In this document: in pieces, positions 12,395 to 56,800 of the stretch
Position numbering within the stretch: position 1 is the first letter of the stretch
Layout of the letters: every line of letters begins with the position of its first letter
DNA from: Fimicolochytrium jonesii
Lineage: Eukaryota
Length of the DNA: 64,000 bases
Assembly: GCF_025526975.1 (NCBI RefSeq)
Contig: NW_026515677.1
Location: forward strand, 248,001 to 312,000
Direction: 5' to 3'
Position numbers and translations under genes: made by a program
The notes under the pieces: model-generated
Seen by the model: the letters and a program-made list of their open reading frames with translations, nothing else
Told to the model about the DNA's origin: nothing
Databases searched by the model: none

Positions 12395-13403
12395 AGTGAT
12401 GTAGTTCCGGACTAGCCCCCCTCGAGTTCTTTACGGTGGATATGCGGTTCTACCAAGATATGCGGTTCGGAGCGATATGGTCCTCCCCTACAGTGAAGTG
12501 AGTTAGCGGGTGTGCTCAATGAGAAAGACCAGTATGAAGTGCTGGAGCTGCTGGGAACCTTTCCCACTTTCGTGCAAGTCCTACAGTGTACGTAGTGCGT
12601 CCACCTGTTGCTCGCAGTCTGGCTCGCAGTCAGGCTCGCAGTTGGGAGAGTTGGGGGGGCCAACGCGTCTTGGGGCGCCCCAAAAAGTCCCCTCCCCTTC
12701 TTGTTGGATGCAGTGCGTTTACCGGAAAGCACGTCTTCTCACACATGGACTACTTGCCCCGACCCACAAATCTCAGTGTGCTGTTCTTACATCACATGCT
12801 TGCGGCGGGAAAAAGAAGTAACCGAGCTACGCTTTTTTTTTTCTATTTTCTTCTTTTCGTTGACGTCTCCAAGGTCGAGTTAGATAATTGGTTAACCCGA
12901 TTAATAGAGGCCGAGGCCGAGTGAGATAGGTCCGTGCAGATACTGTAGATACACTTCTGCTTTGCTTTCAGCGTTGCATCCAATCCGTTTTGCCTCAGTC
13001 AAGCCTCCGTTCTCAACACATCAGGTCGAGGCTCGCCTGAAGTAAACGGATTGAGTGAACGTTCAAAAGAGTCTATGCTGTACTCTATTCCCGTTGCAGG
13101 CTTCAAATTCAGTCGAACGCGTGGGAAGCCACTGGAAAACACGTCCAATGTCCATGTCCAGAGCTGCGCGCGGAAGATCCTTTCGGACGTCCCTCCGACG
13201 GTGGTTCAACACTTGCAAGTGGAGGGTGACAGTTTCAAAGGCAAACATCCCCACTTCACACTGCACTTGGAAGCAGTGTTGCGCCTTGTTGGTATCGAAA
13301 GGATAGCAGCTGCTCACCACGTCAGTAACTCGAACGCAGTATTGCTCCTTTTCGGAAGTACGGAGTCAAGAACCGGCATTCACGAACTGCAGCTTGAGGC
13401 ATT

Positions 13404-27998: not shown

Positions 27999-30608
27999 TC
28001 AAATTTTCAACCTCGTTCCCAGACTCCGCCCCCGCTTCCTCGTTCCCTCCCTGGGTCTAACCTCCTCATCCGAATTATCCTCCTCATCCTCATTCTCATC
28101 ATCCGCAAACCCCGTCAACCCTCTCGCAACCTCCAAAATCGCGTCAAAATCACCCACGAACGCCTGAGTGCCCAACACAGAATCGATACCCGCCGCCTCG
28201 TTGGCCGCTTCTTCGAGCTCCAGGGTCCATCCGCAATCGGGCACGTCTGCGAGTGGTCGGAGGAAGGAGAAGAACGGGTGGTCGGACCTGTTATGTCCGC
28301 GGCGGAGGCGGCGGGCGGGAGGTTTCTTGGGAGGGGCGCCTGCGGTGGGCGTTGGAGAGTCGTTTTCGGTGGAGTCTTCGTTGGCGAAGATCGTTTCTCC
28401 GAATAAAATGTATTTCGGGGGTACGGGGGATGTGAGACTCTCGGAGACGGCTTTGGCCACTAAGGCTTCGTGGTCTTCTTTGATTCGGCAGATGATGGCG
28501 TAGAGCGGTGATAAGATCCTTTTCGACGCACGAACCATCATGTTGACGTGGATCAACCCGTTGCTCACTTCCCAATCAATGTTGCACGCTCCCAGAGTGC
28601 GCGGGAGATTTTTCCACGTTTTCGTCGCCGGATTCTCGACAGCCTTTCGCCAAACAAGTCGTGGATCCTCTCCCGCGTTTCCGGCCCGATCCCCTTTCTT
28701 CTCCTCATCGGTCCAGATCATGCCGAGGTACGAACGGGTCAGACAGGGATCTCCTCGATGAAGAGTTGTAAAAGGCGCTCGGCTCTTGAAGCCCTCGCCT
28801 TTCAGCTCCTGCTGAGCATGCACGATGAACTTCTGGCTCGCCGCGTGCAGCAAGTCCCAACTCTCGAGCGCCTTATTGTACTCCATAAATTTCGGCCTCC
28901 CCAGCGACGCAAACGTAAACCAAGTGATGAATATCTCGAGACTCTTCCAAATCGCCGCGATCGGTACGGGTTCTGCTTCCAGGAGCTCCGCGTGACCCAC
29001 AGGGCATGGGAACTGAGGATGGGGCATGACCCAGACCCCTGAAGACATTGCCGTCCCGGAGTATCTGGTGTGCGGAAGTGTGCAGGTGGCGCGATTGCCC
29101 GCAAAGAGTTGGGCTGGCCTCCACTTTCCGGTTAGGTATGCGCCTCCGCCACCGCAATTTGAGCAGCGCATGTATTTGTGTCGGCAACCTGCACAGAGGA
29201 GCTCCACACCCCATTCTGGTAATCGAGATTGTGGCGGATCACTTTGTTTTTCGCTTGTTGATTCAGTGGGTTCTGCAGACGCGATCGGCACCGTGAACGC
29301 GCCAGCAGCGACTAACTTCTTGCATACAACGCATGCAACAGGTATACTACTGGGTTCAAAGTTCGTTTTCCGCTTTCTTTGCAACTGTCCCTTCCGCAAG
29401 CGCTTGTTGGTCCACACAAGCTTCTCTGCGCATGGTGCACAAGCATAGTCCGCTTTGGCCTGCTCAAAGTTCGCAAGCTGGTCCTCCGTCCCATGTATCA
29501 GGCAATCTCCGATCACTTCGGAGCAGTTCCTGCAGTTGATCGAGGCTTTGACGTGCCGCTTCACTCGACGTGCCGTCCCCGGGTAGCCTGTCCGTCCTCG
29601 CGGGATGGCGACGGGATAGGCAGGTTTGCGTGATATTGGTTCGATCGGGCTGAAGGTAACGTGTTTGACGGCGTTGGTGATTGAGATTAGTGTTTGAGGC
29701 GTTTGTGATGTTTCGGTCAAGGGAGAGGATGTGAGAGCCGGTTCTTGCATGGTAATGTGTGACACTGGCAGAGGTCCGGCATGAGACACTGGTAGGTGCT
29801 CTTCGACATGAGACGCTGGCAGTTGCTCGCCGACGCCCACCGGCAACTGAACTTCGGAATGTGATGCCAGCGGTTCCTCGTCAGGTAAGGCGAGATAGTG
29901 ATCTGGGTTGTGATCAAGTAGATCGGCACCTACGGCTTCTTGAAAGGTCTGATGGGACGGCCAGTCGGCGCTATCCAGGAGCCTCCGCATTGGCGAAGAT
30001 GGACTGTATAAGCCAAAATCGTCCTGTGTCGCCGTATGGTCTCCTGTCCACTGGTCGCTCCCATGGTGTGCGGGTCTCGAAGAAGCTACGCCTTCCGAGC
30101 GATCGACTCCGTTAGCAGGGGCCTCTGAGAGTCCGTGGTTGAGATGTCCGTAATGAGCATCCAAAAGAGTATGGGAACCCGCATTGATATTCACAGCGGT
30201 AGATCCGAAAGCAGATTGCATAGCGGCCTCATGCCTCTGCCCCAACAGGCTATGCTGTGCGTCTGAAAACTGACTCGACAAGAACGAATGCGTTGGTGGT
30301 GGTAGTCGCGGGGATTGTTCCTGTTGCTTCTTCAATAACAATATTTGCAGTTCGAGCTCTTTCAGGCGAACATCCTCCTTCTTCGCCAACAATTCAAGCT
30401 CTTTCGCCTTCGTTTGTTCTTGCAGGAGGGCTAGAAGACTTGCCTCTCGCCCGGCATGCGAAGGACCCGCTGAGCTTCGTGGGTTGAACTCATTGTCTGT
30501 GGAGACAGGGTGGAAGGCTCCTTGGTTCGAAAGCACTGCTTGGTTTGGCGCCGTGGACAGCGACTCGAGCATAAGCCGTAGCCATTCCGTTCCTTCTGTG
30601 TTTTCCAT
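27999..30608 (-). CDS. Uncharacterised 869-aa protein with multiple CxxC motifs
   Basis: Long uninterrupted ORF with a short coiled coil, then CRNC, CAPC, CVVC, CAGC, CSNCGGGG...GKWRP...TCTLPH. Confidence 0.75.
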   Translation of the reverse strand: MENTEGTEWLRLMLESLSTAPNQAVLSNQGAFHPVSTDNEFNPRSSAGPSHAGREASLLALLQEQTKAKELELLAKKEDVRLKELELQILLLKKQQEQSPRLPPPTHSFLSSQFSDAQHSLLGQRHEAAMQSAFGSTAVNINAGSHTLLDAHYGHLNHGLSEAPANGVDRSEGVASSRPAHHGSDQWTGDHTATQDDFGLYSPSSPMRRLLDSADWPSHQTFQEAVGADLLDHNPDHYLALPDEEPLASHSEVQLPVGVGEQLPASHVEEHLPVSHAGPLPVSHITMQEPALTSSPLTETSQTPQTLISITNAVKHVTFSPIEPISRKPAYPVAIPRGRTGYPGTARRVKRHVKASINCRNCSEVIGDCLIHGTEDQLANFEQAKADYACAPCAEKLVWTNKRLRKGQLQRKRKTNFEPSSIPVACVVCKKLVAAGAFTVPIASAEPTESTSEKQSDPPQSRLPEWGVELLCAGCRHKYMRCSNCGGGGAYLTGKWRPAQLFAGNRATCTLPHTRYSGTAMSSGVWVMPHPQFPCPVGHAELLEAEPVPIAAIWKSLEIFITWFTFASLGRPKFMEYNKALESWDLLHAASQKFIVHAQQELKGEGFKSRAPFTTLHRGDPCLTRSYLGMIWTDEEKKGDRAGNAGEDPRLVWRKAVENPATKTWKNLPRTLGACNIDWEVSNGLIHVNMMVRASKRILSPLYAIICRIKEDHEALVAKAVSESLTSPVPPKYILFGETIFANEDSTENDSPTPTAGAPPKKPPARRLRRGHNRSDHPFFSFLRPLADVPDCGWTLELEEAANEAAGIDSVLGTQAFVGDFDAILEVARGLTGFADDENEDEEDNSDEEVRPREGTRKRGRSLGTRLKI

Positions 30609-31355
30609 TGCTATTCTCTATAAACCCATAAGAGATCAACAAAACTGCGTGAAAACCATGCGCATCTGCGTCTGCGCTGTTCCAACGTAGGTGTGTGGTA
30701 TATATGAGAGTGTGAGTCGTCCGCCTACGATTTGGCAGCCTGCGTTTTGGGTCGTTTGTTCAGGGTAATTCGATGGGAATCTCCCACGCCGTGGAAGTGT
30801 TTCGCGAAAGCCCTGCGAACTCGTGCGCATGGGCCGTTTGATGGGGCACAGCACTTGCGGTCAGTTCCTAACGAGCCGTAACGTGGCGCCCACCCAAAAA
30901 CTGGCCGCGTTGGCCCACGGACATGTTCAACTTCCCTCGCATTGGCCACGGAGTCCTCCTGGCAACGGGACTGGCACAGGTACAGCGTACTGCGTAGGTT
31001 AGAGGACCTATGAGGTGCGAAAGAGTCGGAAGTCATGCCTTTGAGGAATAGGTACCTCATTATTTTGACAGAGTTACGGAATGCGGCAACCTTTGCGGCA
31101 ACCTTTCCGACGACGGACGATAATGGGCTGCCCTTACAGGCGAACCTCTGGACACTCGGGAGTAATGAAAGATGGACACGATGGACACGACTTTATTGAC
31201 GAATGTCAGAAGTAGAGTGATATTATCGAGAGTTCAGCAAGGAAAGCGTTTTTATGTACATAGTACGACGGGTTTGTAGGGGGTATCATCACGTAGGGAT
31301 ATTATTTCCAAAAAATAAAAAAGGGGAGGGGGAAGGATATGTTCGGACAATGAGT

Positions 31356-35636: not shown

Positions 35637-38438
35637 ATGCACGAGATGATTGCCGTGCAACACGACGAGGAGCACGCTCCCGACAGACCCCAACGGCAAG
35701 AAAGCCTCATCTCCAACAGTAGCGTGACCATCGACATCCCATCGGTAGAGCAGCCCAAGACAGGAGATGAACGCCCTCCATCCGGTCGGACCGTTTCGGA
35801 GGACAGGGACGCTGAAGATGATAGCCACCTGAAAGGAGGGATGGAAATCTATTGGGAAGATATCCGATATGGCGTGTCTGTTGGAAGCGGAAAGACGAAA
35901 GGGACGAAGGAAATTCTAAAGGGGGATACGGGCCGCGCGAAGCCTGGAGAGGTTCGTAAACTAGAAAGTGAAGGTCATCACAAATCTCCGTGGCTCAACT
36001 CTTGCCCCGCATCCAGCTCATTGCAATCATGGGCGGATCTGGAGGGGGCAAAACAACTTTGCTCAACATGCTGGCAGGCCGTGTCCCTGTCGGTAAACCG
36101 ACGGGCATCATCTTGGCGAATGGAAAGATCCGCGAGAAACGCAAATGGAAGCGGACGGTCGGTTACGTTGAGCAAGAGGATCTGATGTACGAGAACCTGG
36201 TACGTCAACGGCTTGCCATGCTCGATCAATGTTGCCGACACTTGCTGACGATAGGTATGGATGCGTAGACGGTGCGAGAGACATTAATGGTCGCCGCGAT
36301 GCTCCGACTGTCGTCCCGAAAATACAAAAAGGAGGAGAAAATCCAACGCGTGGAGAAGATCATGGAAGATTTGGGCATTTCGCATATCGCGGACTCCCGG
36401 ATTGGGAACTCAACTAGGGGAGGGATCTCGGGTGGGGAGAAGAAGCGTGTATCCATCGGGATCGAGCTCGTGACAGATCCGGCCGTTCTTTTCTGCGGTG
36501 AGGAACAGCATTCCGGTGTTCGGCTCAATGAAGTGAGATAAATGGCTAAGACTGTTTTCCCACTAGACGAGCCGACAACGGGTCTGGACGCGGCAACGGC
36601 GAACCACATCTGCGATATGCTCAAACGCCTGGCCAGGAAGACTGCCAAGACCATCAGTATGTGTCGCCATCCTTCTGTGCTCAGCGTTCGCCGACCTCTG
36701 TACGCGCTCTTGACTGACTTGAACCATAGTTATCACGATCCACATGCCTCGCGAGACGATTTTGGACATGATCGACAAGGTCGCGCTGATGTCTAAAGGA
36801 CGGATGGTGTGGTTTGGACCCGCATCAGATGCCTTGGAGCACTTCGAGTCGCTCGGCCATAAATGCCCAGAAAGGACGAACCCTGCTGATTGTGAGTAAC
36901 CTGCGTGATTCACCGGGAACGCAGTCAGCGCTGACGAGTGTTCCCTCAGTCTTCCTCGACCTCATCCAAGTCGATCAGCGCGACGAGGAGTCGAAAAAGA
37001 CGGTTGAGAAGCTGGTTGAGGAGTGGAAGAAAGTGGAGAAGAAACACATCCCCCCCATCAAGGACAATGAGCGGGACAAGGCTGAAGATCAGCAGAACGC
37101 TCAAAAGAGCAAACAAGGGCGCCAAGAGTTGTCCAAGAAATGGGACGATGGAGAAGATCAATTCGGAGCGAGTTGGTTCACTGAATTTACGGTGCTTCTG
37201 GAACGGAATTTCAAGGTAGGAAAGCAATTTCCCTCTTTGCAATCAAAAGAACAAGAACTGAGATCATGTATTCTTGCCAGCAAATCCTGCGAGACAAGAC
37301 GATTCTCGTTTCCAGCCTGGCGCAACAAATCCTCATCTTGCTGATGATCGGATTGGTCTTCCTGCGGTTGAAGAAAGACCAAGCCGGGGTCCAGAATCGC
37401 ATCGGTGTTTTGTTCTTCATCTGTATCAATCAAGTGAGTTCCGTCCGCAACCCTGGGTTGATACAATCCGTGAAATGATAACTAAGGCCGGTTGTATCAG
37501 ACATTCTCCTTCTTGATGCCCATCATCACGTAAGTGCCGTTGATTCTCTCAAGGGTTGATGTGTTCGACTCCCAGTATTGCTCATCTGACCTGAACTTGC
37601 ACCTGTTGCGTGCTATAGTGTTTGGCCGCTTGAGCGACGCATCATTCTTCGCGAGCGAGCGAGTGGAACGTACAGGACTACCTCTGTGTATCTCGCCAAG
37701 GCCGTCTCCCAAATGCCCACCGCGTTCGTGTTTTCGCTGGTCTTTGCAATCCCTGTGTATTGGATCGTGGGGCTGCATGCAAATGGAATCCGATATGTTC
37801 TTTTCCTGGTCATCACTGGTTAGTTTCATTGATAATATTGAATGCTCAGCCTATTCGACTAAACGTTTATTATACACCAGAGTGCCTCGTGTTCGCTGCC
37901 CAATCGCTTGGAATGCTCATCGGATCATCTGTACCCAACGTGCAAATGGCCCAAATCTTTGGACCGTTGGTCGTGGTCACGTTCGTGGTTTTCGGAGGAA
38001 ACTTCGCAAATCAGGACTCTATCACGCCCGTCTTGCGCTGGATCCAATGGTTAGAAGGCTACGCAGAGGGAGTCTCTTCTCGGACATGCACTAACCGCGG
38101 TCGTCCTTAGGATATCTCCCATTCGTTATGCATATGGAGCCTTCATGCAAAACGAGTTCAACGGACTCCAGTTCGAGTGCGGAAGCTCTTCAGGTGGAGC
38201 AGGAGGGGGCCGCTCATGCTCCCCGGAAGGGGAGAGTGCCGTCAGTGGCATAGGATTGGTAAGTGAACAGTGTTCTCGCTGATTTACTCGGAATCTCGCT
38301 AATGCCATCGCATGATAACAGGACAAACCAGGAGTTGGCATTTGCATTTTGCTTGTGATTTGCCTTGGGGTTGTCTTCCAACTCGCCGCATCACTTATGC
38401 TGCGTCGCACCACGGCTCTCAGGACCATCATCATTTAA
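35637..38438 (+). CDS. ABCG (White-type) half transporter, multi-exon
   Basis: Walker A GGSGGGKTT, GYVEQED, ISGGEKKRVSIG, DEPTTGLDA, TIHMP, NPAD, then ABC2 membrane exons (ILRERASGTY, WIQW). Confidence 0.92.
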
Positions 38439-38567: not shown

Positions 38568-41500
38568 CTAAGCCATCCCAGACTCTCGATCTACGTTGCC
38601 CTTCTTCCCAATCGGATAGAGATCCGGCATGGCTTCCAAAGAAGCACCCGTTTGTGTGCCCGCCGTTGCTTGATTTTCAGGATCGGTCATTTGCTTCTTG
38701 AGCCAGTCGGAGATAGACTGTTTCACGCCCGTGTAGAACGTGTCCCAGTATGCGTCGCGATAGAGTAAAATCAACTGAATGCATCGCATCGTTGCCCAAA
38801 TGATGCCTAGCGCAAACAGTCCAGAGCGAGGGCTGATGCGATCTGCTCTGGCCTCCTCAGCGATGACATCTCCCACCGTCGCTTGACAAACACCCTCCTT
38901 GCGCAGGATGCATTCGCCTGTATCGGCCGCATTGGTGCGCACCAGAGCTGAGAGAGCCCAGTATGTTGGGTTGAGGTACTGCGCCCACGCGATACCATCA
39001 TAGATGGCCGCGTCCCCCTTCTTGATCCAAATGCCACTGACGATGGCCAAAACTGCCTGACTGAAGAAGGCGACGCTTCGCGCTTCCGGCCTTGCGAGCC
39101 GGGTGCAATACACGAGGGTGAAGAGCGTGGTTGTGCAGTTGTAATAGACGACGAATAGGATCATGGCCGTGCCGATGCGAATGGGGTCAGGGTTGCAGCC
39201 GAGAATGAAGTAGGCGGAGATGACGGCGATGAAGCCTTCCATTGTCGCATTGGCGGTCTCGTACACGAGGCGGTGGACGAAGAATGTTATTGCGGCAACG
39301 GTACCATTTTGCGAATCGAAGTTGTATATGTCGCGATCATCGTAGTAATCGAACGAGATGTGGATGTTCTTCAGGGCGGGCAAACCGATGCATGCTAAGA
39401 AAGAAACAGCACATGAGTGCATGCTTCAATCGAGAGATTCCAGGGGGACCACACACACATACCCAATGCCAATCCCTTCGTTTGAAGGACCAATGAGAGC
39501 ACATCTGTGCCAGGACGGCGTTGCAAAAGCGACAGAATCAGCACTCCACAGGCGGAAACAATCATCATATTGAATTTCCGAAGAATCGGCCGTGTCGCCC
39601 ACCATCTGCCCGTGACGATGAGAACCTGGAGTGCTACAGACGGCCGGGGAGGTGCCACCTTCTTGATGGCTTTCGCGTCCTTGTTATAACTGAGGAGATC
39701 AAGAGACTGCGACGTACTTGTGGACGGTTCGATCACACTCCGTTCTCCATCCGCACTGGGTGAGTTAGCGTCCATCGCGAAAGATCGCATGGTAGTGCCT
39801 ATCTCTAGGCGGTCCTGCCAATCTGGCTTCAAAATGAAAACTCCGTTGGCCCCGGACGTCGCACGGAGCAAGGGCTCCGAGGCTCGTCGAGTGGCGCCTT
39901 GCAGGGGAACAAACACCCTGCCGCCCTCCACAACCGTCCATTTCTTTGCAACCTCCAGCGTTTCATTGAAGATATCGGTGTTCCGTGTGGTCGAAACACG
40001 GCCATTTGCCGGCTGCGGCGATCGGGATGTCATATCCTCCACTGATCCGACATCGATGGCCGTTGGTTGCACTGGCGGTCTCCCTTCCGACACCTTGGCG
40101 GCAGTATTTGCTTCTTCCTCATCAATCACGTCAAGAGGAAACCATTGCCGTGCAGCCCAAGCGGAATCAATCGGTTTGATTGTACTCGCGACGTCCAACA
40201 CCAGATCGGCAGGATTGGCGCGGTCAGCGCCCTCGCCATCTTCTCTTGAGACAATGTCGCTCCCCACAACGGAAGTTCCTTGGCGATGAACGGCGGCGTC
40301 TTCGATGACATTGTCGGTTCCAGCTTCCCGAGCCTCGAGCCGTGTGCGCAACTTCTTGAAATGCTCCACCGACTCATCTGGTGGCCCGGAAAAGAGCAGC
40401 CGACCATGCACCAAAACAGTCACTTGATCGAAAAGCGCAAACATCTCCGGTCGCGGCTGATGAATAGAGCAGATGACAGTGTAACCTTGAGAACCCAATT
40501 CGCTCATGGCCTTGGCAACATCAAGGGAGGATTTGGCGTCTGCCGAAAACAAGTCAAAGCGCTGGCCAGTCGGCTTATGCAGAACGTCTGCTCTTACCTA
40601 GGCCCGACGTAGGCTCATCGAGGAAGATCACGCTAGGTCTTTTCAGCATGGCCACTGCGATGGATAACCTCCTCATTTGACCACCAGATATTCCACCTTT
40701 GTTTGCCTCCGGCCGTTGAATTACAACATCTGCGCATGGAAGCAGATTCAGCAATCGCAGCAGGCGATGAACTCGGCGAACTTTTTCGATATTGGGGATC
40801 GTTGGAGGGAGCTGTCACGTTAAACTCGATCAGCGCTACAACGCATATGGCTGACATTCGCAGGTTTGCTCTACCTCAAGCATTGCGTTGAACATCATGA
40901 CTTCGCGCACGGTCAACCCATAGTATGGCGCATCGTGTTGCGCAACAAAGCCGGTCATTGCGCGGAACTTCTGGGCAGTAATATGTGACAAAGGTCTACG
41001 GCGATACAGAATGCGCTCTTCAACACCTGCGCCTGCCTTGAGCCTTCGTGTCAACTGCAATCGACCCACATCAGCACATTGTCAATGGAAGGAGATACAC
41101 AGGGTACACATCACTTACGAGACTCAATAGGGTAGTCTTGCCAGCCCCACTCGGTCCCATGATCGCAGTTACGGATCCAGGTCTACAGGCGATAGTCACA
41201 TCATCTAACAATCTTTTCCCATGGACAGAGTCCCCTGCTCTGTAAGTCACACTACGACATTCCACTAATACAGGATCTGGTCGCTCTTCCTCATATATAC
41301 TCTGCTTCCTCTTGGAAACAGCACTAGCCAGCTTGCTCACCAATCCCACTTGAGTCTCGTCCGCGGCCCCAGATTTCATGAGCATACTCTGATTCTTCTT
41401 CAGAGTTTTCACCGCGCTGGACATTTCCGCTTCATCGAACTCGACCGCACGGTGGATCCGCTGCAAGCGTTGCCGAAGTAGTAAGCTTCCAACTATCAAG

Positions 41501-43448
41501 CATGCTTCAATGATCACAATGGTGACCAGTAAAGCCATGGTTACGACGACCACCGTTTTGGTGAGGCCGGCGGAGTCTCGCTTCCGCGCGGCTACAGTCG
41601 CGGCATCGTCAACGGGCGCATACTGATATCCCACGTTATCCCATTTACGACATCGTGTCAATGATGGGTGTCTTGATTCCATTACTGGTTGATACACTGC
41701 CTCACTGGCTTTTGGTGCGGGGAACCGGAGAATCGGAAGCATGGCAGCATTGGCGCCCACAGATGTCCAGGCGGGCATGTTTGTAGATGGTGCGAGTGGG
41801 TCTCGACCGCCCATGAAATCCGACAAGTAAGACCGGAAGGATGAAGTGACACTCTGGGACAATGCTGGTAAAATATCTTGTTAGCTAGAACAAGCCGGGA
41901 ATGTGTTCTACCACATCAACCCTTACAATCACCCGGTGTCCTGAAGAGATAGCTTAAGTCCGTTGTGTGACAAGCATTTCCATCGCAAATGTTTCCAATC
42001 GCTTCGTCACTTCCCCCAAGCCATGGTGCTTCCAAAATGTACGCCCACACGCGAGCGGTAGACGACGTCGCTTGTAACACTTTCCGCTGTGGGCAAAGGA
42101 ATATCCAGTCGGACGTCATCTGCGTGAGGACCGGCTTCCGCGACGCTAGGTACCCCGGGCTGTCAGCATCGTAGACATTGCGGAGGACCTCGTCATGCGG
42201 GGTGTATATTGCTTCCCTTTATGAAGAACATCACGATTTAGTCAGGATTATATGACCTTGAGTCCGAGATATGCGCACGTACATGATCACATTGAAAAGC
42301 GGGGTGCTAAGATTCCCTGGATTCGCTTTGTCAATCATCAGCCAAGTTTCATTCGAGACACCTCCAATCTGAGCGCCATCAAGGATTGGAATTGACTTAG
42401 CATCGATGAAAATCATCTCATCACAAAGGTTCTGACACTATCGGCTTACCACTATCCGGAGGCCGCCAAGCAGATCATCTCGACCGAGAACATCATACGG
42501 GTTCATCGTGATATCGACCCCGTCCACGATGGGTGTCATGTCTCCTAAAGAAACGCCTGACAACGTCCTGTAGTCCGAGTCTGAGGCATCCGCATTTGCA
42601 GTCAATATGTCTCGCATGGAGTGAAGATTCAGACAAGATCTTGAAGAGCAACCGAGCTTCTTAGCAACGGCAGCTGCTTGTGCGCGACCCCGTTGGGAGG
42701 TGCGAAGGCTTAGAGCAGGGGGAGACATGAGAATTATGTTCTTGATAGTCGAGCGAACTGACGGCTGCAGTAGTTGCAGTAAAATAGATTGCGCCCCTGC
42801 TGACTGTCCTAGCAACGTAACGTCTGCGGCATTGCCGCCGAAGGAGGCAATGTTGGTTTGCACCCATGTCAAAGCCGCCCGTTGGTCCAGAATCCCAAAA
42901 TTCACTGCTGAGGGGGCAGTATCGCTGGGATCAACACCGGCGAAATCAAAGAAGCCAAAAACCGACAGGCGGTAGTTAAATGTCACCACTACAACCCCCA
43001 GCGCAGCGGCCAATTCCGCACCGTCATAAGCAGTCATCCCAGCACCACCGATGTCGAAAGAGCCCCCATGAAAGAAAACGAGAACCGGAGTTTGTGGATT
43101 GCTAAGCGGTGTCGACGTGGTCTGGATTTTTGATGAGTCGGCTGCAGGCGTCCACACATTTAAGAACAAGCAGTCTTCGCCAATACTGTCCGGACACAGA
43201 ACATCCTGGCATATCTGCGGACAGCTTTGCTTGAACTCGAATGCTTCGAGAGGAGATATCCATGGGGTCACCACTGAGGGTGCCTCCCATCTCCCAGCTT
43301 CTGCAAATGGGATTCCAAGGAAGGCGAAATTTCCCTTTGTGCTAGTTCGTCCGGTCACAGGACCTGTAGGCGCCAAGACGGTGACGGCGTGAGTATGGAC
43401 GCTGAAGACAGCGCTGGAGATCAGCAGAATATAAAGTTTGGATAGCAT
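38568..43448 (-). CDS. Carboxylesterase (type B) - ABCG half-transporter fusion, multi-exon
   Basis: Signal peptide, [49 protein letters not shown] helix; [42 protein letters not shown]; multi-TM C-terminus. Exon phases are compatible through the esterase part. Confidence 0.8.
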
Positions 43449-44852: not shown

Positions 44853-47800
44853 CTAATCAGTCTGGCATAGCAGACAAACCCCCCCTAATGTCCACTTTTG
44901 AGGCCTTTCCTTGGTTTTCAAATTGAATGTCCAGATGAAGGTTGGACCTCTTTGCCGCGTTCGGTACACAGGGCATTCATAAACGCCCTTCGTATCTTTC
45001 TTGTCGATTGGTATGGCTTTGATATAGATGACGGGCATTGCGGGCGTGAGCTCTTTGAGCAAACTCTCCTGAATGAGACCCGTGTTGGTGTCCCACCGGG
45101 CTCCCTCCATGAACATGCCATGGATGTACGCGCCTTCACGAGGCGCTCCGGAGAACTCCTCCTTGGCTTTCTTTGTGATATCGACGGAAAGTACCATACG
45201 GTCGAGTGGCCATTCGTTTTTCCTCGCAGTCGTTTGCATGATGGCCGTAAGGAAAGATTGCGGGTTGAACAGGCCAGGCAGCCAAACAACAGCCGGCAGC
45301 TGGAACTCTGACACCCAGCCTTCCAGCTCTTTGATTCGTTGAAGAAGATCTGCGTACCACAAGGCAAGCCCTTGTAGCGATGCGTATGCGAGCTTTTCCC
45401 AAGAAATGGGTACCGTATTCAAGTAGATAGAGTTCATCAACGCCTCCATGTTTTCAGTAATTGTCAAGTCACCCTTGAGACCGAGTTGTAGCTCTCGTAA
45501 CGAACGACGAATCTCGTTGGTTAGCGTCGACATTCGATCGCATTCTTGCAATGCAACGGATATGTAAGGTGTTCGTTCCTCGACCTTGGCCATCAATTCC
45601 GGCACGTTGAATGGATCAGGGAGCGACCCGAGAATCTCTTCAATGACTTGGCCAACCTTCTCCTCCTTGCTGGTTGCCAAACCACCACCAGTGTCCTTCG
45701 GTTGCATTTCCAAAATCGTTCGGAATAGAGTATCAGCACTCTTCGTCAGCACACCAATTTCCGCATTCGGATGTAAGCCGTAAAGGTAGGGTGATTCTGG
45801 TGGAAGGTTTTCGTCGATGTACTTGTGGTAGTCTTTGAGATCGGAAGTAGGGGGCATCGTGAATCCAGGTGCAAGCTCGAAGCTTCCTTCAAACATGTCT
45901 GGCTGAATATATGTGTCCAAGTAGGACGAGCAGAGCAGACGGTCCCAATCGTCTGAGATATGTCCTCCATACATGATGTCTCCGAACATGTATCGCAGAT
46001 CTGTCCATGGAACCTTCGCGAAGGTCTCAAGGTAGTTGTAAAGGACATCGGCAGAAATCGTTAAGTCACCAGTGCTGAAGGGATACGCCCTATTCCACCC
46101 CTGTGTTCCGAATTTCCTCCGTTCCAAAATGGCCGCATGGAAGTAGCAGAGGACGAAGAGAATTCCTCTGAACTCCGCATCTTTCGAGCATCGTTCTAAC
46201 GACTCTTGCGTGAAGTTGTCAAGTGCCCTGTGGACGTTGGCTTGCATACCCGTAGGTGGCTCGTTGGTGATCTTGACTGACGCCTGCAGAATGGATGTCG
46301 GAATAATGTGGTACGCAGGATCGCCGGCGGGCTCGGCTGAAAGGAAGACTCGGAAGTCTGGGTGCGAGCCGGTGGACAAAGCTTCAAGTTTCTTCTCGAG
46401 GACAGGTAACCACTTTGCAACCAGATGGATGTTCTCCAACATGACCCATCCGCCTTGTTTGTAAGCGAGTTCGAGCTTTTGCTCGGCAATAACCTCCTGT
46501 CCTTGCCCTAAGGACACGTAGTGGTAGTTTCCGTTGTCTTCACCTACTCCGAGGGTTCGTCCGTGAGCTTCGACTTCCTTGACTGGATCTACACCAGGAG
46601 AAAGGATAAAGAAGATCGGTGTCGCAGGGCCTGATTCCTCGTATGACTTCGTTAACGGAACCCGAGATGTGTTGATGTATTTCGGGCCCATTTTCGCGGC
46701 GATGAAGTTCGATATCGCATATGTCATACGATCCGGACGGAGACATCTCAGGATGCAAAGTTTCTCCAAGGCTGTTTTGTTCTTCCACTCTTGAGGCAAT
46801 TTCTCACTTTCAGGAACTTCCAATTCGCAATACTTCTTCCACTGCTTGGAACCTCCCTCGATATCCGAGGAGAGTGACCGGAATACCTCCATGTTTGACA
46901 AAGCTTTGACCAGCCCCCACGAAGAGTCCGAGAGCCAGTCAAACGGGCTTTTGACATTCACTACCCGAGGTCCCCGCAAGAGGAAGTCGAGCTCGGGCAA
47001 GTCCATGTCTCCCTGGCTGATGAGGATTTGGAAGGTCATCTGAGCCAGGAAAATTAGCTTGTCTCTCTCAAAGAGACCTCTCGTGGTATATATGAACACC
47101 ATGTGGGTGATAGAGTCGATCAACGCGGTAACTCGTTCCTTGATGTCCTCACTTTTGTCCGCTCGAGAGATGGCATTTTGGAACACAACTTTGTAAGCAT
47201 TGAGAGAGTACTGATACATCGGGTGAATTTGCCACAAGTCGTTTAACAAGAAGTAGAGGAGTGACGACCGAGCTGCCACAGGGCGATAGAGCTCACGAGT
47301 TTCGTTGATCTTCTTTTCCGTTTTCTTGGCCTCCTCCACTTTTTGTTCGATGTCCGTTGCGGTACTCTTCGTGATTTCGAGGTTTTCGACGAGTGCGGTG
47401 TCGCCCAAGAAGTTACCTTGAGCAGCAGAAAGACGTGACAACAACGCATCCTCAAGTTCCGTCAACTTGATTTTGAACTCGTTCTGCTGTTTCGTCAATT
47501 CGGCTTTCGTACGCTCGAGATCAGGTCGCTCAACGTTCACGACGTCAGCGAGAAGCTGGTCCTCCAAACCAGCCAGTGTAACGGTGAAGTTGATTAGCGT
47601 GGTTTGCGCCTGAATTTCTGGCGGGTAGTGCGGGTTCGGGAGCCTCGTTTGCAGAATGAGTTTGAACTTCGGATCATACTCGACTTCCTTGTCACCCATT
47701 TTGATGTACTTCCCTTTCTTGATTGTCTCGCGACCAAGTAAAGGATTCAGCACAGCGTCGATGCTTTCTTGAATATCCTCAATGAGGACGGTGTCTCCGC

Positions 47801-50800
47801 TGGAGACCGCCTTTTCAATCGCATCCAAGTAACCCTTGTGACCAAGACGAACGATCTTTAGACCAGCTCCTTCCCGGTTCTTGATCCAGACCACTCCTTG
47901 CAACTGAGGATCAATAATCAGTGGCCAACGCTTACAGCTGGTTACCATGGTTGCATTTTCGAGAGACACACGATCGCTTGGAAGGCCTTCGTTGTTCCAC
48001 TTGGCAATCTCGGCGCTCGACGTCAAAATGTCCAGTGGATCTAATCCTTCAGAGAGAGGTACTTTGTGCGGGTTGCTCGGATCGGTCAGGTATTTCAGCC
48101 AGTAATCTTGGAGCAGCTCCTCTCGGTAGCGCTTGCTGAAACATCCAACGTAGGAAACGAAAGCCGCAGACATCAGCACATCACCAGCGAGGGTCTTCTC
48201 CTGTTCCTTAAACTTGGCGACTGCTTCATTCCAACGAACGTTTTCGGATGCCAGACCTCCTACGAGACGATTCGCAAGAACGATAGTCTCTTGCGTTGCC
48301 CTAGCCTCCTCCTCACAAGCAAGCTTGTCAGCAGTTGCCTTTTCGAACTGCGCCGTCAGCTCCGCCAAATTCCTGTCGAGCTCGGCAATCTTGCCTTGGA
48401 TTTCGGCCAAACGGGCTTGAGATTCCCGCAGGGTCTCATTCGCCGCCTCCAACATCTTGCGTTTGGGCTCCACTTCCCGGTAGGTATGGTAGTAGTTGAC
48501 AATGTTCACTACCCATGAACAAAGACCAGCAGCAGCGATGGATTTTGACTTCATAAATTCCTCGTTAAAATTAGGATTGGACAAATACGGCGCTAGTGCG
48601 TCCAGATTGGAACTGTCGATGTTTTCTTTGTCGAAATTGATCAGACTTTCCAAGAAAGCGTCCACCTTCGCCATCATATTCTTCGAAGCTTTCCACGACC
48701 TATCCTTCGCAATTTTTCCAGCGGGACTCAGCAAAATCATGACTGCCGCTGCGGTATCAACGACTTCTTGGGATGGCGAACCGAAGGATTTCAGTTCCGT
48801 CAAATTGGCCTTGTTGAGCGTGTTCAAGGCGTTAGCTGCGGCTGCCAATGCAGGTTCAGCAGCTGCTAAATCCTTTTCGGCGTCAGCCTGCTTTTCCTGA
48901 ACTTCCTTGGTGATAGCATCGACCTTTTTCTCTTCCTCTGCGGCAATGGCCTTCTCTTTGTTCACTTTCTCAGTGTCGACACCAACGCGCTCGATAAGAC
49001 GCTCGGCTTCCTCATTCTTGCTCTTCAACTCGACTTCCTGCGAGGCGAGTTTCGCTTTCAGATCGGCTACTTGAGACGCGGTACTTTGCAGTTTTGTCAG
49101 GCCGTTCTCCAGACGCTCCATGCTCTTTGTAAGAGCCCTAGATTTCTGCTCCAGCATCTCCTTGTAAAGTGAGATCAAAGCCAAGAACGATTTTGGCGTG
49201 GTGTAATTGTACCGCTTCTCATTCACATGGTACTTCTTTGAGACGGTGTTAACACTCTGATGTGCGAACGCCATGAAGCGAGTGACTGGCAGCTTCAGGT
49301 CCTCGGGTACGAGTTCACTTGTAGCGATGAATCTCGTTGCCACGGACTGAAGAGCTTCTTCGGGCCATTCGTGGAACCAGTCAATCATAGTGCAATTGAC
49401 AATTGCAGGGAATTTGCGGCATCGAGAGCGAAGCGCGTTCCCGACCGGAGAGAAGCAGAGTACGACTTTCAGATTCTTGCGGACGGCTCTGATGAACAGA
49501 TCCCAGCACACTTCACGAGTATCCACTAGGCCTTGTGACTTTGCTTCATTTCGCATGCCGTTGATGATCGTTTCCACTTCATCATCTGGGAATAGACCGG
49601 GAATGTTTCCACTAGCTAACATGTCGTTAATCAGAACCAAGAACTTTTCATCCGCAATCTGGGAGTCCGTCAAGAGGAACATAATTTGAACCTTCTTCAA
49701 ACCGGTTTTCTGGTACAGAACCGCAAGGTCCGCCTTTAGATCGTTCACGGAATAGCCCTTCTTCAGAGTGATTTGGAATACCTCCATCTGGCTGATAAAT
49801 GCAGCCAGACGAGCCAACGATTGTTTTCCGCTTCCTCCCACACCAACTAACAGCGCATTTCCGCGTGGAGATTCCAGGATACGGTTGATGCGACAGACGT
49901 GAGCCATGGCGTCTTCGAAAAGCACCAGGTTCATGGCGGCATTGACTTCATCATACTGCATCTGCGCCTCGTCAAGGAGCTTTTTCAAAGCCGGCCAATC
50001 CTTCAGTTGACCGTATTTCGATTCCCCGATACCAGAAGCAAAGTGGGTGAAAAGGATCGGTTCTGCATTGATGGCGGCTTGATCCATGTCCTCGAAAGTC
50101 TTCTTCACCACTTCCTGTTGGAACTTCTGCAGCTGTTGTTGATCTGCATCATCCATCTTGTCACCGTACGTACGCGATGTCTCGTGAAGGAATAGCCGAA
50201 CCAAGTCGATGGGCTCCTTCAGCGTATCTTTGTTCGAAAATAAGAGACCTTGGAAAATATTCGACAAGTCTCGCAGATTGAAAATGTAGTGGAACTTGAC
50301 CGCTGAAGGCAAGAACGTAGCGGCAACCTTCTTGTGCAAAAGCAACGATCCGGCGACAAGCTTCTCCGCCAGTCTCTGGATGTTGTTGGGGAACTGTTTC
50401 AAGTGGCCAGAAAGGATCTGGAAATAGATACTCTGCAGCGAGTCAACACCTGGGAAATTGACCGCAAATGTTGCAAAGTGCCTTTGTAACCGCCCCGAAA
50501 TGGTGAAACTTCCGGCGGTGGGGTTCATACACGCCACATACTGGCAGTTGTGGATTTCCTTCAAAGTAAGCTTGGCTCGATCGTACCAATGCTTGTAGTC
50601 CAAATATTGCCTCAACAACGTATGTGGTGATGCGGTTCCGTATTTGTCCACTTCAGGCATGTTCAAGTCATCCAGGAAGTAGATGAGCTTTTTCGATCCA
50701 GGCGGGCCGTAGTTCCTACCAGCTTTCTTCTCAAGCGGCTTTTCCAGAATAGATTGGAGGGACCAAGCCGTCGTGTAGAAGTTGAAGGCTACATTGACGA

Positions 50801-53800
50801 TCTGGCGATCCTCCCCGTACGAGTATAGCTTGTCTTGCATGAGAACTGTTTTACCGCATCCTGCGTTCCCCACAAGCAAGACGGGCTTTCCGTTGTCCGC
50901 TAAGACATCAAGCATATATCGCATGCGCGTTGTTTCAGGAGTATGAACGAGCACTGCGTTCAAAGGCATGTCCGCATCATACACATAGGGGGGGACCTTG
51001 TCCGTCCACGGCGCAAACCGCTTTGTCTCCGCATCGACATAGTAGTCAAAGACCGTTCCTTGAGCAGGGAACTTCACGGTCTTGAACTCCCCGTTCCACC
51101 ATTTACTGAACTCCACACGATAATCCACCATCTGGTCCTGGAAGACACATCCGCCAAACGCCCAGACTGCGGCAAAGACGAAGTAAACCTCGAACCACTC
51201 CTTGTCGCATCCTTTAGGAGTGTTCTCTGGCGTCAAAAGACCTTCAAGGATATTACAGAGCGTAACAATCATGGAGAACTCCTCCACATTGGCTTGCTTG
51301 AATCTACCCGACCGGCAGGCGTCCAAGCATACATTGACGTACCGGTCGAACAAGACGCTCAAGTTCGACTTCTCGCTAGCGTCCTCGCGTTTGTCCAACC
51401 AAGATTGAACATACGGATTCCATCCCAGATCGGTCGTATTCAAATAAAGAATACCGGCTCGTGAGACCGTGGCAGGTGTTGCATATTTGAGATCCCCAAT
51501 CTCGAAAATCAGACGCATGTTCGGTTTCAATGGAATACGCTCGTTACTGGCCAAAGTCAACATTTTGTTGTCATCCATGACCGTGTTGAGGGACTCAATC
51601 CAGTTCGGGTCAATGTCGCCGTCCAAAATCATCCAGCGAGGATCCGTTCCGGGCATCCCGGCAAGCTCACGCATGATGGAAGAGAATAGTCCGTCCTTCC
51701 ACTCCCGAGTCGATGGGTTAATGCAACCAAATAGATCGTCCGTCGTGACGGCTTTCGGGTTGAGATCAGAGAAGACGCACTTCTTCCCGCTGTTGATGTA
51801 GGTTTTGGCCAACATCTTCCAGATCTGAGATTTGCCGGTACCTCCATTACCGATGATGAAGACACAGTGACGAACAGCCAGCAATTCTTCCAGTTGAACG
51901 ACTTTGAGGACGAAGACTTCCTCAGCTTGAAGACCACTCTCGAGGGTGGCCTTGCGAATGTCCTGTTCGAGCTTTTCGTCACGTTTACGAGCGACTTCGA
52001 CTTTGGGGAACAGATCGCCAATAAGACCGTGGAACACTTGCAAATCATCGGAGACAATTTTGGGCAAGTTGAAATCACGTAGTGCTCGCATGAGCACTTG
52101 ATCTTCCGGAACGTTACGGTCCGCACGCTTCAAAGCACCGGCGACCACCAACACAGATTTGATCGCACGAAGACCCCAATCGTAATGATCTTGCTTCGAC
52201 AGCAGCTCCTTGTTCAATTTGTAAAGGGTATTGAACTTTCTGGCCAACCCACTGGCCTCCACAAATCCTTCCGCCATCAGCATGATTTCCATGATGAGCT
52301 CCAGATTGGGCACACACATAGAACATGGCCGGAAAAGCGCTTTGATGTTCTCAGGAAGCTCGGCACGACCAGCGTAACCAGGGTTCATGGTGATGAAAGC
52401 TCCGACGGTTGGAGTGAGACTGATCTCCTCTCCCTGGAAAATGAAGCGCTTTTTCTTCGCCTTCAATGCATCCTGAATCGACTTGACCTGTGTGGCAATG
52501 ACGGAAAGTACTTCCACAACAATACGGTTGAACTCATCGAAACACCCCCATGTTCCGGATTGCGCGAGTCCTTTGAAAATGTTTCCGACGGAACGGTAGT
52601 CCATTTGCTCGGAGCAGTTGAACACGTAAACCATGATTCCCAAGGCTTTGCCCAAATCCTTGGTCGTCTCAGTTTTGCCGGTACCAGCAGGACCGGCGGG
52701 CGCACCTCCCATGATCAAGTGCAAGGATTGTGTCAGTGTAATGTAGCAACGATCCGTCAGCGATGTCACGACTAAACGAGGAGTATTGCCGAGATACTCG
52801 TAGCTGTAGCGGAACGAAGCATCGCAAATGTTGATGATACAATCGGATTGATCTTCGTCCCATCGAAGACGAAGTTGCGATTGCCATGAGAACACTTGTG
52901 CGGAATCGGCTTTCTCCGCAATGAGCTTCGCAACAATGTCACGAGCGTGCACATCGAGGGTACAAACCGTCATAATCATTTGACGGTGCAGCTTGGTCAG
53001 GTCTCCCTGAATTAGCGTAATCAGAGCAGTGAGCTGGTTAACCTGCTTCTTGTAGTAGTCCTTCATGGAGTTTTCGTATCCCTCCTCCAATCGTGCGAAT
53101 GTTGAATTCACTTCTGTGGTCCACCAAATTTGCGTTCCCGCAAGAGTAATCTGCGCGGGGTAGTCGAAGATCCACTGATCGCGCGGCTTCTCCTCGTAGG
53201 CGGTAACGGAGTCTCCGAGCGCAGTTCGCAGGGTCTTTCGCATCATATCCACCAATCGGTTGAGCCACACCTCAACTGGACCTGTACACTCGCAAGGTTC
53301 GATGAACTGTACGTATTCGTCTTCCCTCGAATACATTCCGACGGCGGTTTTCGTCACTTCGCCGTTGGGTCCCTTGTAGAACTCCAAAGATGCCAAACTA
53401 TCGAAGAGTTTGCCCAAATGCACAGCAACCGCTTGTGGCATGTTTCCTTTCGCCAGGATATCCAACAGATCGGAGGCAGAAACGAAATAGAAACGGGGGA
53501 AAGCCAAACGCTTGGTTTCCAGGTACTCGGCGAGAGACTTCTCACAAAGGGCCAATTGCCCTTGGAGCTTTTCGAGCCGGTCGAATAAACCCTCCTTCGT
53601 GCACGCCTCGACACAATTTGGCGTCTTAGAAGCTTCCTTCATGAGCTCCTTATATGCTGCATCGATACTATCGAAACGCTTCGAGTCTTCTGGAAGCTGG
53701 GCACGAATGTCCTCCGACCCCATGAAAATGTTCTCCAAATGGGACCAAGTTTGTTGGACTTCCAACCACAACGTGATCACGGAATCCACAGTGGACAAAA

Positions 53801-56800
53801 CATTTTGCCATTTGGTGATTTGCTCCTCGAAGTGCGCAACATATTTGGAAGTCATCATGGTTTGCAGCATGACCTGGTTGTCCTCCAATGTCTCGATAAG
53901 CTCTTCTGAACTCTTGAGTAGCGGTGTTTTCGTGCTCTCGTGTATTTCGTAAGTGAATTCCATAACACTCCATGTCTTCGAGAGGTCGTTGAGGACCTTC
54001 TCCATGGACAACTCTTTCGTCGCACGATCGACGATAACCTTCACATCGTCCTCAAACTTGTGTAACTGAAGACTGAGCAAGTCTTGGAACTTCATGTCGG
54101 CCGTCATAACGAAGGTAACGCCGGTCGTCTTCATCAGCTGCTTCCAGTGACGATCGCGAATGGCATTGCTCCTAAGCTCCCCAACAGCTCGAAGCGATGT
54201 CACCATGTCCTTCACGGCTTGATCAAGTCCCGAATAGACATCCCATCCCTTGATTTCTTTGTCCATTCGCCGCAGTTCTTTGCTCAAGTCTCGACAGTGA
54301 GTCTCCATAGCATCGGTGTCGATCGCAGTCCAAAGGGTTGTTCGCCATTGCTCGAACATGAGAGTGACTAGAGACACAACGTCCCAGACTGACTTGAGCA
54401 TCCCGATGTCGCGTCGACAGTCAGCAAGCTGTCGGTAGTTGGGCACGTTCAGCTCGAAAAGTTCGCAGGACGTTCGAAGAGCCTTTGCCTCGTTCTCCAT
54501 CGCCAGAACGTCGACGTGCACAGTGTCGATGGATTGATATGCCTTTTCGGACCCTATCTCGAATTTGAAAGGCGCCTTCTTGCGGAACTCTTCCCGGAAG
54601 TTGTGATTGCGCGTTTCGAACTTGTTGCACTTTTGCTGCAAGACGTCGACTTCACGCGCTTGAAGCGGTGCAGCTTGGTCCTTTACAGCCATCGAGAGCT
54701 TCTTGACCTCCGACCATTGTTCGGGCAAGTCGTTGAGAAGTTTATGCGTCTCATCTGGCATTTCCACACCGAATTGGCGCAAGAAATTGATGGTTTTCCG
54801 CAACGGCTCAAACATCCCGTCAATGCTTCCCGTTCGTTGCTTGATCGCATGAAGAAGACCCATCGATGATACGAGAGCATCGTAATCACCCTCCCTGATC
54901 TCACGTTGGAGGCCTTTCTTATTATGCTTGACAAAGTCGTTGAGCTCATTCAAGCTTACAATAGCATCGTCCTGCAAATGCTTTGTCAAGGTGTAGCTCC
55001 ATTTCTTGACCACGACATTCAAAGCCTGTTTCAAAGGCTTGGCGTCGATGCGGAACCAGCCTTGGAAGATGACCTCCGGCTCGATGCTCATGATTTGCTT
55101 GTGCAGTGCCTCGAACTTTCGGATCTCGTTCTCGAACCTCTCCAGTTTGCTGACGTTTTCCGTCTGCGTGACCGGCGCCTCCTCCGTGGGAGCAGCACCT
55201 TCCTCGTCTTTGGGCTTGTCAGAAATTTCGAGGAACTGCTTCATGTAGTCCTGGCGATTCTCGGTCCACAACCATGTGTACTGGTCGTATCCATCTTTGT
55301 ACAAGACGGACTCGGTCATGATCTGACGAACACGCTCCAGAATCGTAGCCCGCAATTTGCCGAGTGTCTGATCGCGACGCATTTCACCTAGGTAGGTTTC
55401 GTTTTCCATGTTGATTTGTGCCAGTTGTTTGGCGCGCAAGTCCTCTTGGTCAGCGTCGGATTCGCCATCAGCTTCGTCGGTTTGATCGTCGCTGAGCGTT
55501 TCCCCGGCGTCTGCGGCCTCCCCTGCCGCGCCGCCACCGGTAGCACCGGCTGCACCAGCTTCGCCGGATACTGGCACCATGCCCGCCCCATTCTGTAGCG
55601 GAACTCCGGGTTGTTGCGCAGGTGCCACCCGTCCCATCAAAGAGGCACAATCGTAGATGTCTTCAAGAACATCGTTGATGATATAGGCGATGCTATTCTC
55701 AGAGTCTGAAGGACGATGGAACGGCTGGAAAGTTAGAAAGGGATAATATTTGATCTCGAAAGTTGAGTAGTAACATACCTTCATCCATCGTAGGGGTGAA
55801 GACGAGAATCTCCCCGTGAAGCTCCAGCTTAGCCTCAAGAAGAGCACCAACATCAGCCAAACGCTCTGACTCCATGTTTTGAGCGATGTACTCCAAACTA
55901 GTCTTCAGAGTTTGCCAGAACCCTTCCCGAACAACCTCGTCAATGAAGGCTTGGTAGCGTTTCCACTCTTCCGACTCTTCCTTCGCCTGCACAACCTCAC
56001 GTGTTTGCGTAATGAGCTGGTGAATCGACTGTCCATCACGTTTGATGATATCGTAGGCTGTAGAAAGCTTGGTATCCTTCTCCTCCAGATTGAGAAGCTT
56101 CTTAGAGTCCTTCCGCTCAACCAATGGCGTCGCCGACCACGCCTTCATGATCTTGCGAATCTGGTTCAAGTTGCTCTTCATCAACTGCAGGACGGACGAC
56201 AAGTCGCCAACGGACGCACTGATTTCGGCAATGTAGGAAACGATGTTGTCGGATGTCCAGTTGAGATCCGTCAGCGCGTACTTGATCTGGGCGTCGATCT
56301 GGCTGATCCGATCCTCGATCAGCGGGCGTTCTACGTTGTTCACACCAGTGCGAATGCCATTGTACGACTTTGTAATGTGGTCCAGTTGGAAAATGTACTT
56401 TCGGAACACATCCGACTTGGAGTAGATCGCTGCGGCGGCTGGAGGCGGAGTGACCGTGAGTGCCTCAAAGTAGCGGACCTCACGAAGCAAGGCGACGACT
56501 TTGGGGTCGAAGTTAACGCGGAGCAAGTCATCTTCGCGGATGAGGAGCGGCTTGTTAAGGTTGGCTTCGGTCTCATCGATGATGGTATCGCTCCATTTGG
56601 TGAAGATGGAGCGCTCGTAGGTCTCGAGTGTCTCATAGAGGTTGTTATACTTTTGCGTTACGAGACCTGCTTCCTCTGAGTTCATGGCACTGTGGTTGAA
56701 CTGTACGAAGGGAAGAACTTTGAGCACGAAGTCAGGTGACAATGTGCATGGAAGCTGCATCAACTTACACTTTTCAGCTTGTCCATAGCCTTGGCAATCC

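Follow-up and report, generated by a model that had tools for sequence, protein, structure and literature searches.

A predicted carboxylesterase ectodomain fused to an ABCG half-transporter in Fimicolochytrium jonesii and other chytrids

We analysed a 64,000-nucleotide stretch of the Fimicolochytrium jonesii genome (NCBI RefSeq assembly GCF_025526975.1, contig NW_026515677.1, positions 248,001 to 312,000 of the forward strand), referred to here as the window. On its minus strand lies a fusion gene, the spliced model of which encodes, in order, a signal peptide, a type-B carboxylesterase, one membrane helix, an ABCG nucleotide-binding domain (NBD) and an ABC2 membrane domain (Table 1). The fusion is real and conserved and apparently undescribed, although its architecture can already be found among the predicted proteins in databases.

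Table 1. Features of the fusion gene and the adjacent transporter gene, in window positions (aa, amino acids; rows, sequences of the family alignment)
Feature	Position	Strand	Basis or remark
Whole fusion gene	38568..43448	-	8 exons, 1472 aa, one terminal stop; spliced model
Exons 1-4	43448-42450, 42368-42283, 42216-41927, 41864-41119	-	
Exons 5-8	41054-40875, 40811-40598, 40539-39463, 39394-38568	-	
Predicted signal peptide, aa 1-21	43386..43448	-	hydrophobic N-terminus
Type-B carboxylesterase domain, aa 22-540, exons 1-4	41620..43385	-	Pfam COesterase, E 5.7e-70 (exon 1)
Catalytic Ser216 in GQSAG	42801..42803	-	aligned with the AChE GESAG serine
Predicted triad acid Glu340, exon 2	42348..42350	-	
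Cys403, likely partner of Cys530	42093-42095	-	
Predicted triad His445, exon 3	41967..41969	-	after the C-x4-C pair
Met476, start of the RefSeq model	41812..41814	-	within the esterase domain
Cys530, last conserved esterase cysteine	41650..41652	-	bridging exon
Single membrane helix, ~aa 561-590	41470..41559	-	between esterase and NBD; hydropathy 2.8
ABCG NBD, aa 658-901	40352..41268	-	Pfam ABC_tran; ABCG and PDR NBDs match best in the PDB
Walker A	41134-41157	-	
Signature	40677-40691	-	
Walker B DE	40614-40619	-	
H-switch	40460-40462	-	
Poorly conserved linker, aa 902-1139	39638..40351	-	mean identity 23% over 18 rows
ABC2 membrane domain, aa 1140-1412	38751..39637	-	Pfam ABC2_membrane, E 2.6e-8
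Lys1206, invariant basic residue, transmembrane helix 2 (TM2)	39369..39371	-	K in 29/29 rows
Conventional ABCG half-transporter, 686 aa, 12 exons	35637..38438	+	tail to tail with the fusion gene, 129 bp between stops

The two halves meet in exon 4. The corresponding open reading frame (ORF) runs from stop to stop over positions 41071-41880 of the minus strand; its coding part is 41864-41119, and 41071-41118 is read-through into intron 4. In a single frame, exon 4 encodes the last ~80 esterase residues with C530, one hydrophobic helix and the Walker A motif GPSGAGKT. A preliminary description, made from the letters of the window, had held that this ORF frees the fusion from any splice guess. 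That is correct for the esterase end, the helix and Walker A, and goes too far for the catalytic core. Pfam detects ABC_tran in exons 4 (E 1.9e-7) and 6 and ABC2_membrane in exon 8, while COesterase is detected in exon 1 and in exon 3 (E 9.5e-5, under the curated cut-off) and not in exon 4, so that the join between core and exon 4 rests on three splices. All seven introns are GT-AG and 58-81 nt long; those of the neighbouring ABCG gene are 58-89 nt. For intron 3 there are six frame-keeping donor/acceptor pairs, every one of which gives a single open frame, and the 62-nt version fits best (summed bits of 778 versus 726-752 over six orthologues). An acceptor at 41876, which would give a 1476-aa product, was dropped for 41864, which fits the orthologues better.

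Residues 476-1472 of the fusion protein are identical to the F. jonesii (Spizellomycetales) RefSeq protein XP_052925902 (P0001), which has no esterase Pfam match. Because this model begins at Met476, inside the esterase domain, the public annotation of the genome conceals the fusion. It implies two adjacent genes, a secreted esterase and an ABCG transporter starting at Met476, and a 348-aa esterase-only JGI model in one Geranomyces assembly (P0057) splits the gene as well. Both models speak against a single protein, yet two genes are hardly credible. A stop after exon 3 would remove ~80 residues of the fold, including the invariant C530; exons 3 and 4 are separated not by an intergenic gap but by a 62-nt GT-AG intron in which GCTAAC resembles a branch site; and P0057 terminates precisely at the position of intron 1. 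Furthermore, homologues without the intron exist. Specifically, the metagenome sequences P0060 and P0061, found by profile search, carry the esterase start, the helix and Walker A in one intron-free ORF that stops just past Walker A, at the position of intron 4 of the fusion gene. A single fused protein from one gene is nearly certain.

The N-terminal half has the cholinesterase-type alpha/beta-hydrolase fold of a type-B carboxylesterase, with a Ser-Glu/Asp-His triad and oxyanion glycines predicted by alignment. Its sequence matches are cholinesterase and CEL, and the AlphaFold2 model of a 1155-aa Boothiomyces orthologue, P0327, matches the AChE fold with a TM-score of 0.72-0.74, depending on the target (Foldseek). 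The PDB yielded no sequence match to exon 3 searched by itself, nor to P0060 under a strict cut-off. The Ser (GQSAG) and His motifs, reported as apparently intact in the preliminary description, are both present, as is Glu340, which we take to be the triad acid from the family motif. Motifs were counted over 32 rows (38 minus six near-duplicates), using for each site only the rows that cover it. S216 is conserved in 22 of 23 rows, E340 in 22 (with one D) of 23, H445 in 27 of 27, and the oxyanion glycines G128 and G129 in 22 of 22; the single exceptions at S216 and at Walker B are the ends of truncated records. Ten esterase cysteines are conserved across the family, among them C530 (33/33), C403 (31/32), C439 (31/33) and C444 (30/32), and Cys403 presumably pairs with Cys530, following the AChE disulfide pattern. 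A cholinesterase role was considered and rejected: cholinesterases have a long omega loop bearing a choline-binding Trp, whereas the omega-like loop of the fusion is ~10 residues shorter than that of AChE and lacks the choline-binding segment, which falls in an alignment gap.

The C-terminal half is organized as an ABCG half-transporter, with the NBD before a six-helix ABC2 domain. The ABC motifs described at the outset as intact (Walker A, Q-loop, ISGGQ signature, Walker B DE and H-switch) are all found, and the D-loop is intact too. Across the family, the Walker A K is present in 27 of 27 rows, the Q-loop in 24 of 28, the signature S and Q in 28 of 28, the Walker B D and E in 29 of 30 and the H-switch in 30 of 30. 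The membrane domain is distant from canonical ABCG profiles, as its Pfam E value indicates, but it is conserved among family members. Compared with the F. jonesii protein, these average 55% identity in the NBD and 54% in the membrane domain, but 37-44% in the esterase and 23% in the long linker, which is likely cytosolic and disordered and is far shorter in Boothiomyces. C1359 and C1367, in the large outer loop of the membrane domain, are C in 28 of 28 and 29 of 29 rows. The P0327 model (37 sequences, pLDDT 78, pTM 0.65), which represents the Boothiomyces orthologue and not the F. jonesii protein itself, matches whole ABCG25 and ABCG2 chains with TM-scores of 0.72-0.85 by target among the best 14 rows; the ESM Atlas returned only generic ABCG clusters (0.89). 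With their motifs preserved, both halves are very probably active, ester hydrolysis and transport being the predicted activities.

A signal-like leader is found in 15 of the 25 rows that cover the esterase start; the other ten lack a leader in their annotated form and begin at or within the esterase domain, likely owing to missed first exons or truncated gene models. Exactly one hydrophobic helix separates esterase and Walker A in 34 of 34 rows, and the P0327 model likewise predicts one long helix between esterase and NBD. N-glycosylation sequons number 0.89 per 100 aa in the esterase and 0.45 in the NBD. The leader, the lone helix, the sequon density and the conserved cysteines together predict an extracellular or lumenal esterase. 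The outward orientation is a well-supported prediction, and the ecto-esterase part of the preliminary description is borne out by the signal peptide, the cysteines and the one helix before the NBD.

The fusion is widespread in chytrids. A search with exon 4 returned six full-length fusions among 54 matches, in Powellomyces, Geranomyces (three), Thoreauomyces and Spizellomyces (SPPG_09314), which are 51-58% identical to the F. jonesii fusion over ~1450 aa. HMMER with P0001 was run against 1.84 billion representatives. Among the 150 matches listed, at least 20 besides P0001 and P0007 match the family membrane-domain profile (58-458 bits for these 20 members, many of which are seeds of the profile; the next match scores 41), and COesterase and ABC_tran occur together in 10 of 25 proteins scanned. 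In the best 120 matches of a later search, the top 21 are the family (415-642 bits, the next 303); PF00135 and PF00005 occur together in 18 of these, and PF00135 in 0 of the other 99 matches listed. The Pfam architecture thus places COesterase and ABC_tran in one protein in many chytrid records.

Whole or 5'-truncated, the fusion architecture is present in at least 18 named species of at least 14 chytrid genera: Fimicolochytrium, Powellomyces, Geranomyces (two species), Thoreauomyces, Spizellomyces (two), Gaertneriomyces (two), Rhizophlyctis, Blyttiomyces, Hompol1 (presumably Homolaphlyctis), Batrachochytrium salamandrivorans, Polyrhizophydium (two loci), Gorgonomyces, Boothiomyces (two) and Quaeritorhiza. 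The Rhizophlyctis and Blyttiomyces records include the esterase only in part. Among the matches listed, no named member falls outside Chytridiomycetes (about a dozen further members have no species name), none belongs to Chytridiales, Synchytriales or B. dendrobatidis, and one copy is seen in most species. The algal parasite Quaeritorhiza haematococci has four copies (P0187, P0330, P0331 and P0192), two of them with adjacent locus tags. A scan of metagenome contigs with generic esterase patterns found the fusion in 0 of 80 loci among the matches listed. Two members carry additional domains, an ankyrin-kinase in P0329 (Polyrhizophydium) and a ubiquitin-like domain in P0326 (Boothiomyces), probably as a result of merged gene models.

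Phylogenies of the separate halves point to a single origin. In a FastTree phylogeny of 516 NBDs, from which six near-duplicate or incomplete fusion rows were left out and in whose sample there is no fungal Adp1, all 26 fusion NBDs group together in a single clade (SH 0.977), apart from the neighbouring ABCG and from a clade with eight ABCGs that have cysteine-rich ectodomains; the backbone is weakly supported and gives no firm sister group. In a tree of 191 esterase domains, all 23 fusion esterases likewise fall into a single clade (SH 1.0), and since support for the sister relationship is just 0.70, no donor can be named. IQ-TREE phylogenies of 20 members share 13 of 17 splits between the esterase and the NBD plus membrane domain (shuffled-label control: mean 0.15, maximum 2), and the four Quaeritorhiza copies cluster together in both. 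The congruence indicates that the halves have been co-inherited since one early fusion, and the sequences are best explained by one fusion event in early chytrids. One phylogenomic preprint (10.1101/2023.06.28.546836) places Quaeritorhiza basal to Polyphagales, an order that its Rhizophydiales-Spizellomycetales-Rhizophlyctidales clade does not list; on that placement the fusion would be old within chytrids. Separate from the other Spizellomycetales, Gaertneriomyces has a long branch, possibly a sign of fast evolution or paralogy. In its two members, P0209 and P0325, the membrane domain is just 23-26% identical, yet the Lys-Asn pair of TM2 and the triad are kept.

Co-inheritance is no demonstration of functional coupling. 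The ectodomain could be an anchored ectoenzyme or a ligand-binding domain, linked to the pump in polypeptide, location and expression but handing no substrate to it. Such a tether would account for the helix and linkers being least conserved (22-29% identity), and other ABCGs bear unrelated cysteine-rich ectodomains at the same place, so the position tolerates varied domains. Against it, no full-length esterase-free family transporter appears among the 150 and 120 matches listed, save the split annotation P0001, and the fusion has been kept across the at least 14 genera and through the Quaeritorhiza duplications. We regard a mere tether as quite unlikely; the two halves probably serve one pathway.

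For that pathway we tentatively favour cleavage outside the cell followed by uptake, in which the ecto-esterase would cut an ester and the ABCG pump, likely working as a homodimer, would import the released acid. We infer the catalytic activity, the anionic cargo (from Lys1206), the inward direction and the hand-over between halves. The carboxylesterase reaction always yields a carboxylate, and the pump is seemingly tuned to an anion, which makes this the simplest joint reading. In particular, K1206 and N1207 in TM2 are conserved in 29 of 29 rows, and the fixed positive charge at K1206 suggests an anionic cargo. In a family profile alignment, a single one of low identity with a gap five residues upstream, K1206 falls opposite ABCG2 S440 and L1205 opposite F439. 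According to 10.1101/2021.02.18.431786, F439 and S440 touch drugs in cavity 1 of ABCG2. A Lys at the K1206 offset occurs in 0 of 26 non-family membrane domains matching a nearby motif, a small and motif-selected comparison set. The K1206 pattern, with the higher identity of the membrane domain than of the esterase, also suggests a narrow cargo. Lipid or sterol esters, put forward as an example in the preliminary description, would be candidate substrates, though nothing in the analysis singles out sterols. Among fungal ABCG proteins, Aus1p and Pdr11p provide a precedent for uptake (PMC2848647).

Several points weigh against uptake after cleavage. Besides the low identity of the K1206 alignment, the limited comparison set, the leaderless rows and the split gene models, most characterised ABCG proteins export (PMC2848647, and as generally known), which makes inward movement the rarer direction. 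In all four Quaeritorhiza copies the Q-loop Gln is gone and the signature now reads SAGQ or STGQ, while the esterase triad is kept; ATP-driven transport may therefore be dispensable in some members. Finally, the substrate, the activity, the localisation and the transport are all predictions from sequence. A more specific form of the uptake reading is a chytrid-specific cut-and-import machine, in which the ectodomain would cleave pollen, algal or other host lipid esters at the feeding surface and deliver the acid directly to an ABCG cavity lined by Lys, from where ATP would drive its uptake. In this specific form we think it unlikely.

The order of events could also be reversed, the pump exporting an ester-linked lipid or metabolite that the tethered ectodomain would hydrolyse or trans-acylate at the surface; this could serve, for instance, a wall, a cyst, an adhesive layer or the release of a signal. 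Export is the usual ABCG direction (PMC2848647), and the modelled fold matches those of ABCG2 and ABCG25, which are exporters. In ABCG2 the position aligned with K1206 lies in the substrate cavity, and the cargo could bear both an ester and an anionic group; the strongly conserved membrane domain would fit a dedicated endogenous cargo. However, there is no candidate cargo, no conserved biosynthetic neighbour was seen within the 64-kb window, and a free-acid cargo would offer nothing more to hydrolyse. On balance, export before processing appears rather unlikely.

Alternatively, the protein could be a detoxification unit, with the ectodomain destroying ester toxins outside and the pump expelling those that enter. 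Xenobiotic defence is a classic role of carboxylesterases and ABCG pumps alike (for fungal PDR, PMC2848647). The L at the ABCG2 F439 position and the adjoining invariant K are, however, unlike a polyspecific aromatic clamp, and resistance families tend to expand, in contrast to the single copy seen in most species among the matches listed. A defence role is distinctly improbable, and cleavage followed by uptake remains our tentative choice.

The conventional ABCG gene next to the fusion gene encodes a protein that is 34% identical to the fusion over the NBD only, lies in a separate clade and has FCDE as its Walker B. An obligate partnership was considered and is unsupported, both proteins having complete ATPase motifs and belonging to different clades. 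The neighbour's closest relatives among the Geranomyces sequences sampled, 40% identical and perhaps not orthologous, apparently lie on other contigs than the fusion, a weak test. Elsewhere in the window, positions 19356-22286 (+) hold ORFs with NDC10_II (E 6.9e-21) and GCR1_C (E 2.5e-13), which we take to resemble a Crypton-type tyrosine-recombinase element. A divergent histone-fold ORF at 23096-23650 (-; Pfam Histone, E 2.2e-13), H3-like by eye, could be a variant or decayed copy beside this putative mobile element. An intron-free 872-aa ORF at 27999-30617 (-) has several CxxC pairs and no Pfam match at E 0.001. The gene at 9880-12430 (-) is a trifunctional folate gene (two FolB, HPPK and pterin-binding) with the ordinary fungal FOL1 layout, and the dynein heavy chain gene at 44853-57749 (-) has an open frame of 3683 aa and looks axonemal by eye, which fits a flagellated fungus.

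The fusion is an old, seemingly chytrid-restricted and predicted surface protein, present in soil saprotrophs, in an algal parasite with four copies and in the salamander pathogen B. salamandrivorans, and it may mark a yet undescribed part of chytrid feeding or development. An ectodomain with an assayable predicted activity offers a handle on the purpose of Adp1-type ABCG ectodomains, and a second question is opened, namely whether an ABCG fold can couple to an enzyme and run inward. Spizellomyces punctatus, which carries the orthologue SPPG_09314, is transformable. Interest is tempered by the familiar domains, by an architecture already in databases and by a mechanism that is proposed only.

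No ABCG protein characterised so far is known to us to have a catalytic ectodomain. The architecture had been called unfamiliar in the preliminary description. We found no description of an esterase-ABCG fusion in the papers searched, subscription papers and bioRxiv supplements aside, and no mention in papers of any of five locus tags; the architecture is nonetheless present in the public predicted proteomes of many chytrids. The word 'esterase' does not occur in the main text or two supplements of PMC2848647 or in the accessible part of PMC4692070. None of three family motifs occurs in the PMC2848647 sequence table, a weak negative as the comparison covers 7 of 13 S. punctatus ABCG rows, with entries cut at ~400 characters.

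Compared with AChE, CEL and p-nitrobenzyl esterase (PF00135), the fusion esterase has the same fold, GxSAG, oxyanion GG and triad positions. One difference is an additional pair of cysteines in its first disulfide loop, which 17 of the 18 family rows parsed have and which is absent from the commonest classes among 117 other esterases; the C-x4-C before the His and the attachment to a pump are further ones. Likewise, the transporter half shares the NBD-TMD (transmembrane domain) order, the full fold match and complete ATPase motifs with White/ABCG2/ABCG25 half-transporters (PDB 6eti, 8i39). In contrast to these, it has ~650 more N-terminal residues, scores under the TIGR00955 cut-off (240 and 189 bits versus 736), and has L-K-N in TM2 where ABCG2 has F439-S440-S441.

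In PCAT/SunT-type peptidase-containing ABC transporters, an enzyme domain that acts on the cargo is joined to an ABC half-transporter; these proteins are bacterial, with an ABCB-type fold and a cytosolic cysteine peptidase. The fusion has an ABCG fold and a predicted extracellular serine esterase, and the likeness is one of analogy only. The closer comparison, already drawn in the preliminary description, is with yeast Adp1 (YCR011C), a member of fungal ABC-G Group VII, which has an EGF ectodomain before a single NBD and six genes in S. punctatus (Kovalchuk and Driessen 2010, PMC2848647). The fusion ectodomain is a carboxylesterase with a triad and not EGF repeats; exons 1 and 3 and the orthologues gave no EGF match in Pfam and matched COesterase instead. 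In topology the likeness holds: Group VII proteins and the fusion share a large N-terminal soluble domain and a membrane segment ahead of a single NBD, followed by an ABC2 domain.

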